Below, in pieces: positions 24,429-39,276 of a stretch of 64,000 nucleotides of DNA. Numbering within the stretch: position 1 is the stretch's first letter; each line of letters opens with the position of its first letter. A program made the position numbers and the translations under genes. Source of the stretch: Escherichia coli (GTDB taxonomy: Bacteria; Pseudomonadota; Gammaproteobacteria; Enterobacterales; Enterobacteriaceae); NCBI RefSeq assembly GCF_003334785.1, contig NZ_QOWV01000001.1, one strand, 5' to 3'. The notes under the pieces were generated by a model that was given only the letters and a program-made list of their open reading frames with translations, made no database searches and had not been told where the DNA came from.

Positions 24429-24653
24429 CTATGCGACTGCCGCTTCTACTTCGACGGGCACAATAACACTGGCGTGATTGCCTTTTGGCCCCTGGTGGAC
24501 ATCAAACTGAACGGATTGTCCAGCTTTTAGCGTTCTGTAACCATCCATCTGAATGGTGGAATAATGAGCGAAAATATCTTCGCCGCCGCCTTCAGGGCAG
24601 ATGAAACCAAACCCTTTGGCATTGTTGAACCACTTAACAGTACCCTTTTCCAT
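24429..24653 (-). CDS. cspD: cold-shock-like protein CspD
   Basis: 74 aa from MEKGTVKWFNNAKGFGFI (CSD RNP motifs). Confidence 0.9.
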   Translation of the reverse strand: MEKGTVKWFNNAKGFGFICPEGGGEDIFAHYSTIQMDGYRTLKAGQSVQFDVHQGPKGNHASVIVPVEVEAAVA

Positions 24654-24975
24654 GCTTCGACATCCTTCGCAAATCTTATACAAGTAAGATGGAATAAACC
24701 GGGGTCAGAGAGGGGGCTGTTCAAAACCTCGCCAACTCTAGAAATACAATTTAGAGAATTAGGGCGAGCCGTCAAGCATTTGACAGGGGACAAGGGGCAG
24801 GTATGAATCAAAAATTTGAAGCAGTTAACGCTATTGACAGGAATGTGACAGATGTCGCTGATGCCAACGATAGATGATAGTTATCTATCATGTGGAGTAG
24901 ATTGGTCAGGCAAATAAGCTCTTGTCAGCGGCAGGGCGTTCTGCCGATAACCGTAACCGAAGATGATAACTGACA

Positions 24976-25296
24976 ATGGGTAAAACGAACGACTGGCTGG
25001 ACTTTGATCAACTGGCGGAAGAAAAAGTTCGCGACGCGCTAAAACCGCCATCTATGTATAAAGTGATATTAGTCAATGATGATTACACTCCGATGGAGTT
25101 TGTTATTGACGTGTTACAAAAATTCTTTTCTTATGATGTAGAACGTGCAACGCAATTGATGCTCGCTGTTCACTACCAGGGGAAGGCCATTTGCGGAGTC
25201 TTTACCGCCGAGGTTGCAGAAACCAAAGTGGCGATGGTGAACAAGTACGCGAGGGAGAATGAGCATCCATTGCTGTGTACGCTAGAAAAAGCCTGA
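24976..25296 (+). CDS. clpS: ClpA adaptor protein ClpS
   Basis: 106-aa ORF immediately upstream of clpA. Confidence 0.95.
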
Positions 25297-38200: not shown

Positions 38201-39276
38201 TCGCCGGTGAGCCGGTGGTTGCCGATCTGGCGAAAATGCCGCACTTGTTGGTTGCGGGGACTACCGGTTCCGGTAAATCTGTCGGTGTGAACGCGATGAT
38301 CCTGAGCATGCTTTATAAAGCACAGCCAGAAGATGTGCGTTTCATCATGATCGACCCGAAAATGCTGGAGCTTTCGGTTTATGAAGGCATTCCGCATCTG
38401 TTAACGGAAGTCGTTACTGATATGAAAGATGCCGCCAACGCGCTGCGCTGGTGTGTTAACGAGATGGAGCGTCGGTATAAACTGATGTCTGCGCTGGGTG
38501 TGCGTAATCTGGCGGGTTATAACGAAAAAATTGCTGAAGCCGATCGCATGATGCGTCCGATTCCAGACCCGTACTGGAAGCCGGGTGACAGTATGGATGC
38601 CCAGCATCCGGTGCTGAAAAAAGAACCATACATTGTGGTGTTGGTTGACGAATTTGCCGACCTGATGATGACGGTAGGTAAAAAAGTGGAAGAGCTGATA
38701 GCACGTCTGGCGCAAAAAGCCCGTGCCGCGGGTATCCACCTCGTACTGGCAACTCAGCGTCCATCGGTTGATGTTATTACTGGTCTGATTAAAGCGAATA
38801 TTCCGACCCGTATCGCCTTTACCGTATCCAGTAAGATTGACTCACGTACCATTCTTGATCAGGCTGGCGCGGAATCACTGCTGGGTATGGGGGATATGCT
38901 CTACTCTGGGCCGAACTCCACGTTGCCGGTACGTGTCCATGGTGCTTTTGTTCGCGATCAGGAAGTTCATGCCGTGGTGCAGGACTGGAAAGCGCGTGGT
39001 CGCCCACAGTATGTTGATGGCATCACCTCCGACAGCGAAAGCGAAGGTGGTGCGGGTGGTTTCGATGGCGCTGAAGAACTGGATCCGTTGTTCGATCAGG
39101 CGGTGCAGTTTGTCACTGAAAAACGCAAAGCGTCAATTTCTGGCGTACAGCGTCAGTTCCGCATTGGTTATAACCGTGCAGCGCGTATTATCGAACAGAT
39201 GGAAGCGCAGGGGATTGTCAGCGAACAGGGGCACAACGGTAATCGTGAAGTGCTGGCCCCACCGCCGTTTGACTAA
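35287..39276 (+). CDS. ftsK: DNA translocase FtsK
   Basis: 1329 aa; TTG start; N-terminal TM domain, Pro/Gln-rich linker, C-terminal motor with Walker A GTTGSGKS and gamma domain. Confidence 0.95.
37504..37734 (+). repeat. in-frame 39-bp tandem repeat (about 5.9 copies) in the ftsK linker
   Basis: cagcagccgcaacaaccggttgcaccgcagcagcaatat repeated head-to-tail, encoding ([13 protein letters not shown])n. Confidence 0.9.

Follow-up and report, generated by a model that had tools for sequence, protein, structure and literature searches.

The window analysed here, a 64-kb stretch of DNA, is K-12-type E. coli sequence and has a match in 5,425 of the 5,426 complete E. coli genomes, almost always with an identity of at least 99%; positions are converted to MG1655 coordinates by adding 897,937. 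Around the site the genes run macB, cspD (on the minus strand, with its ATG at 24653), yljB (24803-24877), clpS and clpA. The clpS gene (yljA; plus strand, 24976..25296, supported by both the ORF and the annotation) is the first gene of the clpSA operon and lies downstream of an 18-bp palindrome, ATGATAG-TTAT-CTATCAT (ATGATAGTTATCTATCAT), which occupies exactly 24874-24891, its two 7-bp arms matching perfectly around a 4-bp spacer. From its right end to the clpS ATG (24976) there are 85 bp, and from its left end to the cspD ATG (24653) 221 bp, as an earlier note on this DNA had described. The additional GATAG mentioned in that note was also found, at 24869-73, beside the GATAG at 24876-80 and with the matching CTATC at 24885-89. 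A second inverted repeat, GATAGAT/ATCTATC (24869-75 and 24883-89, with a 7-bp spacer), overlaps the first palindrome and includes the additional GATAG; within its whole extent (24869..24889), deep conservation is confined to the left arm.

The frequency of such repeats was estimated from dinucleotide-preserving shuffles of the 322-bp intergenic region, 12.9% of which contained at least one perfect inverted repeat with 7-bp arms and a spacer of 0-10 (mean 0.16). In the 64-kb window, 83 repeats of this kind were counted, versus 46 ± 7 in shuffles. The palindrome by itself is statistically unremarkable. A full-text literature search for the site sequence returned one PCR primer and nothing else.

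The small ORF yljB (24 aa, plus strand, 24803-24877 in the RefSeq annotation) ends within the palindrome, its TGA stop codon (24875-77) being located in the left arm. The yljB frame was intact in three of 11 Enterobacteriaceae; in the others the start codon was lost or the frame was interrupted by a 1-nt indel or an early stop. As the nucleotides of yljB are highly conserved and its frame is mostly broken, the conservation is regulatory and not coding. The stop codon in the left arm would suit an RNA hairpin at the end of yljB in a transcript running from yljB into clpS, acting for instance as a translation-coupled element or an attenuator, and the 30-nt RNA indeed folds at -8.3 kcal/mol (z = -2.4). 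However, the stem is weak, AU-rich and without a U tract, the terminator scan was negative, and the z value was only -1.4 in a 66 nt context. The right arm, moreover, is not conserved, yljB is intact in only those three species, and no Rfam family matched at the site. An RNA hairpin is therefore an extremely improbable explanation of the palindrome. The gene yljB, validated as encoding a small protein, sits wholly over the candidate CRP, PhoB and OxyR sites described below.

To compare the region across Enterobacterales, the clpS loci of other members of the order were fetched and their upstream regions aligned, and 10 other Enterobacteriaceae were scored. Four near-invariant blocks were found in the Enterobacteriaceae: AAAATTTGAAGCAGTTAACGCTATT (24811-35), TGTGA-N6-TCGC (24845-58), ATAGATGATAGTTATCT (24870-86) and GTAGATT (24897-903). 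Conservation was uneven over the palindrome, with a mean identity among the 10 species of 8.9/10 for the left arm, 10.0/10 for the spacer and 6.9/10 for the right arm. The perfect dyad was present in E. coli and E. albertii, and a perfect right arm was confined to Escherichia; this may reflect chance or co-adaptation with the satellites. Outside Escherichia, two to six of the seven pairs of the 7-4-7 arrangement were kept, and the inner dyad GATA-GT-TATC was retained in most genera. The conserved block at 24870-86 was absent from the aligned clpS upstream regions of Serratia, Yersinia and Rahnella and of genera still further removed.

The promoter architecture of clpS differs between families. 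About 85 nt upstream of clpS, Serratia, Yersinia and Rahnella have GATGGTAAAAT, which is extended -10-like, instead of the ATAGATGATAGTTATC block, and these genera keep the block of CRP site I. In Enterobacter asburiae, the stretch from the GTAGATT block to the start codon of clpS is shorter by about 55 bp, and the OxyR-like site is at -73, versus about -128 in other Enterobacteriaceae.

The earlier note had taken the palindrome to be a candidate operator of a dimeric regulator acting on one or both of the flanking genes. In favour of a symmetric operator of clpS and/or cspD that binds a dimeric regulator different from OxyR are the perfect dyad in E. coli and E. albertii, the persistence of GATA-GT-TATC in most genera, and the conservation of 24870-24886 at almost every base, which is beyond the strict need of a degenerate OxyR half-site. 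Against it, the right arm is poorly conserved, pairing decays outside Escherichia, and a palindrome of this kind is within chance expectation. By its pattern of conservation, the dyad is not the part kept by selection, which argues against a classical symmetric operator. A scan of the window with 13 consensus families (15 patterns) gave only common-level matches over the palindrome for Fur, FNR, CRP, ArcA, DnaA, IHF, NsrR, Zur, MntR, NarL and LexA, and OxyR alone was distinctive. Matches at the level found for Fur, FNR, ArcA, NsrR, Zur, MntR, NarL, LexA, IHF and DnaA recur 88 to 3,954 times in the window; Fur (11/19), FNR (8/10) and ArcA (8/10), considered as candidates at the palindrome, were rejected, as each recurs 88 to 530 times. 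The site shares with Fur box and LexA box operators a short AT-rich dyad near a promoter, and its GATA/TATC half-sites are reminiscent of Fur, but its scores of 11/19 for Fur and 10/20 for LexA occur hundreds of times in the window and the dyad is not conserved. Overall, a symmetric operator of this type is highly improbable. Finding a neat palindrome in promoter DNA does not make it an operator; the symmetry in this case matches the core of a mobile-element recombinase site.

Evidence for such a site came from the E. coli genomes themselves. A 90-bp query across the palindrome was uninterrupted in 5,058 of the 5,426 complete genomes and split in the remaining 368, with the break at about 24870-24874; the attR junction was carried by 365 of the 5,426 genomes (6.7%). 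The inserted sequences are 10.8-14.7 kb elements of the phage-inducible chromosomal island (PICI) or capsid-forming PICI (cfPICI) type with a tyrosine integrase. In FDAARGOS_1256, yljB and clpS are separated by a 10,814-bp element that encodes a tyrosine integrase, an AlpA-like excisionase/regulator, an Icd-like protein, a DUF4222 protein, a primase, SSB, a prohead-protease/major-capsid fusion and TerS; tail and lysis genes were absent from its gene content. In B1W1, a 14,726-bp element was found at the same place, with an integrase region 91% identical to that of the FDAARGOS_1256 element and with additional genes for capsid, protease, portal, connector, HNH, TerS and TerL. By its gene set, the B1W1 element has the make-up of a capsid-forming PICI. 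With lambdoid phages the smaller element shared no more than 2-6% of its length in any one phage record (identity 80-93%), in genes for packaging and the head, namely terminase, portal and protease; this patchy similarity is the pattern expected of a satellite. The elements thus combine a size of 10-15 kb, int, an alpA-like gene, a primase and packaging or capsid genes with the lack of tail and lysis genes and a dedicated att site, and on this gene content we classify them as PICI and capsid-forming PICI phage satellites.

The satellite integrase has 412 aa and its gene starts 168 nt after the core. It matched phrog_1 (E = 2e-69); its matches to NCBIfam tyrosine recombinases were far below the curated cutoffs, with distant similarity to Xer/integron recombinases only.

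Comparison of the junctions defined the attachment core. In both elements attL reads ...GATAG-ATGATAGTTATtTATCA(G/T) and attR reads ...CTATAA-ATGATAGTTATCTATCAT-GTGG. The sequence common to attL, attR and the window covers 24874-24890/91 and consists of 11 perfectly matched bp, one C/T mismatch, and then TATCA(T). At the mismatch, position 24885, attL has T and attR has C in both independent elements. Since this difference segregates alike in the two, the crossover must lie to the left of 24885, inside 24874-24884. A joined attP was found on a 10,780-bp metagenome contig (L106), retrieved through integrase similarity, in which the right end of the element, ...AAATGATATAA, is linked through ATGATAGTTATTTATCAT to CTAGTGTTCGCGG of the left end, upstream of int. 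The 11 bp at 24874..24884, ATGATAGTTAT, are identical between attB and attP. When one attP variant was searched for in IMG/VR by exact match, no hits were obtained. Tandem GGTGTAGTYAAT repeats in the same orientation were present on both attP arms of both elements (38745-38768 and 49344-49367 in L097; 14186-14209 and 28698-28721 in L098).

The core sequence is thus present at both junctions of the elements and once at the empty site, a tyrosine recombinase gene adjoins it, and the joined attP was recovered. From this comparison we conclude that the 18-bp palindrome (24874..24891, common to attL, attR and attP apart from the C/T mismatch at 24885) is the unoccupied core attachment site (attB/attC) in the window for PICI and cfPICI-type satellites. 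The tyrosine integrase of the satellite would recombine the attP core ATGATAGTTATTTATCAT with the chromosomal ATGATAGTTATCTATCAT, with strand exchange placed within 24874-24884 by the sequence comparison. The inverted arms ATGATA/TATCAT are likely binding sites of two integrase monomers flanking the crossover, and the tandem GGTGTAGTYAAT repeats are likely arm-type integrase sites, as in lambda.

The arrangement resembles attB and attP of lambda-type heterobivalent tyrosine integrases in its short core with inverted arms around a crossover region, the candidate arm-type repeats on both attP arms, the integrase gene beside attL and the excisionase-like gene close by. For integrases of this kind, inverted core-type sites are expected to flank an overlap of 6-8 bp, with arm-type repeats in attP; at the sequence level, the inverted arms and the tandem repeats are present here. 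The arrangement differs in that the sequence is unrelated and the core is located in a regulatory region instead of a tRNA gene or the gal-bio interval. In their Table S1, Fillol-Salom et al. 2018 (ISME J) gave the att sequence ATGATAGTTAT at 'cspD-clpS' for two PICIs, EcCIIHE3034 (10.5 kb) and EcCI18098 (10.8 kb), and the paper counted eight PICI attachment sites in E. coli. The 11-bp core derived here independently agrees with that entry, as do the locus, the element type and the size of 10.5-10.8 kb. In contrast to the published cases, the site in the window is empty, the likeness of attB to attP reaches 17-18 bp with one mismatch and so coincides with the palindrome, and a 14.7-kb capsid-forming-PICI-like element also uses the site. 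The role as an attachment site is thus already published, and both functions proposed here are of known kinds; what is gained is a base-resolution picture of one of the eight E. coli sites.

In strain Z1323HEC0475, the chromosome record NZ_CP148326.1 ends exactly at window position 24874 and a 42-kb record, NZ_CP148327.1, ends with window 24836-24873, the assembly having apparently been broken at the att core. An IS1A in the K-12-derived strain ER1709 (366-1063 in L095) was considered as an insertion at the palindrome and rejected, as it is unrelated and lies at the 3′ end of cspD, where it lengthens the annotated cspD ORF.

A probable host function was found for the conserved left arm and spacer. 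OxyR is a tetrameric LysR-type activator, and its consensus was reportedly defined by Toledano et al. in 1994 as ATAGnTnnnAnCTAT-N7-ATAGnTnnnAnCTAT. When this consensus was scanned over the whole 64-kb window (63,964 positions), the single best match, 15/20, was ACAGATGTCGCTGAT-gccaacg-ATAGATGATAGTTAT at 24848..24884 (MG1655 922,785-922,821). A score of at least 15 is expected in Markov-random sequence at 1.7e-6 to 6.3e-6 per position, or about 0.0005-0.002 for the intergenic region. For calibration, the best scores in the classical promoters of MG1655 were 16 for oxyS, 14 for katG, 16 for dsbG, 13 for ahpC, 14 for dps, 17 for grxA, 14 for fur and 12 for trxC. A matrix was also built from the top consensus matches, not the footprinted coordinates, in these eight classical target promoters, with clpS excluded; with it, 24848-24884 ranked first of 63,964 positions at 12.7 bits, compared with 5.6-25 for the training sites in leave-one-out scoring. 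An alternative register at 24870-24906 (13/20, 5.8 bits, rank 41) was rejected.

The clpS-proximal half-site, ATAG-N7-TTAT, is a T-N11-A LysR-type box at 24870..24884 that contains the left arm and spacer of the palindrome and matches at 9/10. It is the only such half-site in the window and is near-invariant in 11 Enterobacteriaceae. Within the predicted 37-bp OxyR site, the conserved block ATAGATGATAGTTATC corresponds to the half nearer clpS, in a register differing from that of the palindrome. An OxyR-like site of 12-15/20 was found at the same position in 10 Enterobacteriaceae; none was found in the sample of more distant Enterobacterales, which included Serratia, Yersinia, Rahnella, Pectobacterium and Pantoea. 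With 6/10, the distal half is a weak match, and its overlap with a CRP-like site at 24841-24862 could account for the conservation of this half. Conservation is not focused on the OxyR consensus positions (9.6 versus 9.2 in the proximal half and 7.4 versus 8.8 in the distal half).

Published regulation agrees with the prediction. Among the OxyR regulatory interactions compiled for RegulonDB curation is one for yljA, which according to the source stems from one transcriptome study. The Imlay laboratory includes clpSA in its table of the OxyR regulon, citing Sen et al. 2020, and H2O2 raised the activity of a PclpS reporter, which was assigned to the pulsatile OxyR genes. The predicted site shares with those of oxyS, katG, ahpC, dsbG, grxA, dps, fur and trxC the 37-bp bipartite motif, at 15/20 versus 12-17/20, and a position upstream of a gene reported to be OxyR-induced; it differs from them in being predicted only and in its weak distal half (6/10), which overlaps CRP-like and PhoB sites. 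Taken together, motif, conservation and published regulation suggest that 24848-24884 is probably the OxyR site for clpSA, through which H2O2-oxidised OxyR would activate the operon.

Such a site would explain the invariance of the left arm and spacer across the Enterobacteriaceae, and this invariant sequence would in turn offer the satellites a reliable target, which fits the habit of integrases of targeting conserved sequence. We consider it very probable that the palindrome is a satellite landing site overlapping the probable OxyR site of clpSA. Of the reading in the earlier note, binding of a regulator here is thus very probable, but the symmetric dyad is highly improbable as the operator, its right arm being conserved at only 6.9/10 against 8.9/10 for the left. 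The regulator would probably be tetrameric OxyR, bound in a different register and using only the left part of the palindrome, and it is the dyad that matches the satellite att core. No evidence ties the site to cspD. The host regulatory signal would be asymmetric and larger, with only part of the palindrome included in it.

At a promoter that it activates, OxyR would be expected to bind next to or over the -35 region, with the centre of its site near -55. Two candidate -10 elements for clpS were found on the plus strand: TAGATT, within the GTAGATT block (24897..24903), which is invariant or nearly so and lies at a fixed distance from the OxyR half-site with no indels between; and TAAGCT (24915-24920), a moderately conserved TAnnCT hexamer. 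The centre of the predicted OxyR site would be at about -61 with TAAGCT (24915-20) and at about -44 with TAGATT. The transcription start of clpS was not found in the ROSE or SMRT-Cappable-seq supplementary data.

The block could alternatively be mainly a core promoter, with ATGATA (24874-79) as the -35 and TAGATT (24898-903, 18-bp spacer) as the -10 element of clpS, or with TATCAT as a -10 element on either strand. The two conserved blocks at a fixed distance without indels are compatible with this, and TATCAT fits 5/6 of the -10 consensus on both strands. On the other hand, the consensus promoter scan gave no plus-strand promoter here, TATCAT on the plus strand is not conserved, and a -35 hexamer cannot account for a 17-bp invariant block. 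We regard a mainly core-promoter function as unlikely; a core-promoter role would be compatible with the OxyR and attB roles.

Two CRP-like sites (24812-24833 and 24841-24862, 11/16 each) are located 29 bp apart inside invariant blocks; these are reportedly the CRP sites I and II through which cspD is activated (Uppal et al. 2014). On the minus strand at 24834-24851 there is a near-consensus Pho box, CTGTCACATTCCTGTCAA, which corresponds to the motif TGTCACATTCCTGTCAAT of a published PhoB ChIP-seq site at cspD/clpS; in the PhoB table, the RNA of neither flanking gene was flagged as significantly changed in the phoB deletion. The Pho box and the distal OxyR half are each overlapped by CRP site II, so that competition among three regulators for a single 25 bp stretch is possible.

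Integration of a satellite would affect this arrangement. Since the crossover falls inside the predicted OxyR site, an intact OxyR-like copy (15/20, 12.7 bits) is found after integration at attL, 168 nt upstream of the integrase gene, and a degraded copy (11/20, 5.7 bits) remains on the clpS side (attL 38608-38792 and attR 49439-49541 in L097). Integration also separates clpSA from yljB and from the CRP and PhoB sites by 11-15 kb. The clpSA operon matters for iron homeostasis during peroxide stress, and its probable OxyR site is cut by the att site, which is a small lead; beyond the overlap of att and OxyR sites, current understanding is unchanged. On sequence grounds, satellite integration might rewire peroxide signalling, so that about 7% of E. 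coli would have weakened H2O2 induction of clpSA and altered control of the iron pool, and the satellite integrase or excision would become OxyR-responsive. We rate this as distinctly doubtful, and it is the only part of the analysis that might be new.

Several minor features were observed on the cspD side of the region. An RNase III-dependent antisense RNA has been reported across cspD; it concerns the coding region and not the palindrome. The invariant sequence TACAATTTAGA at 24743-24755 is -10-like on both strands, with TACAAT on the plus strand and TAAATT, the predicted cspD promoter, on the minus strand. It may be a bidirectional promoter and could also supply the yljB transcript. The cspD mRNA (24497-24758, minus strand) gave a sub-threshold Rfam match to the cspA thermoregulator, with 29 bits against a gathering threshold of 78 and E = 1e-5.
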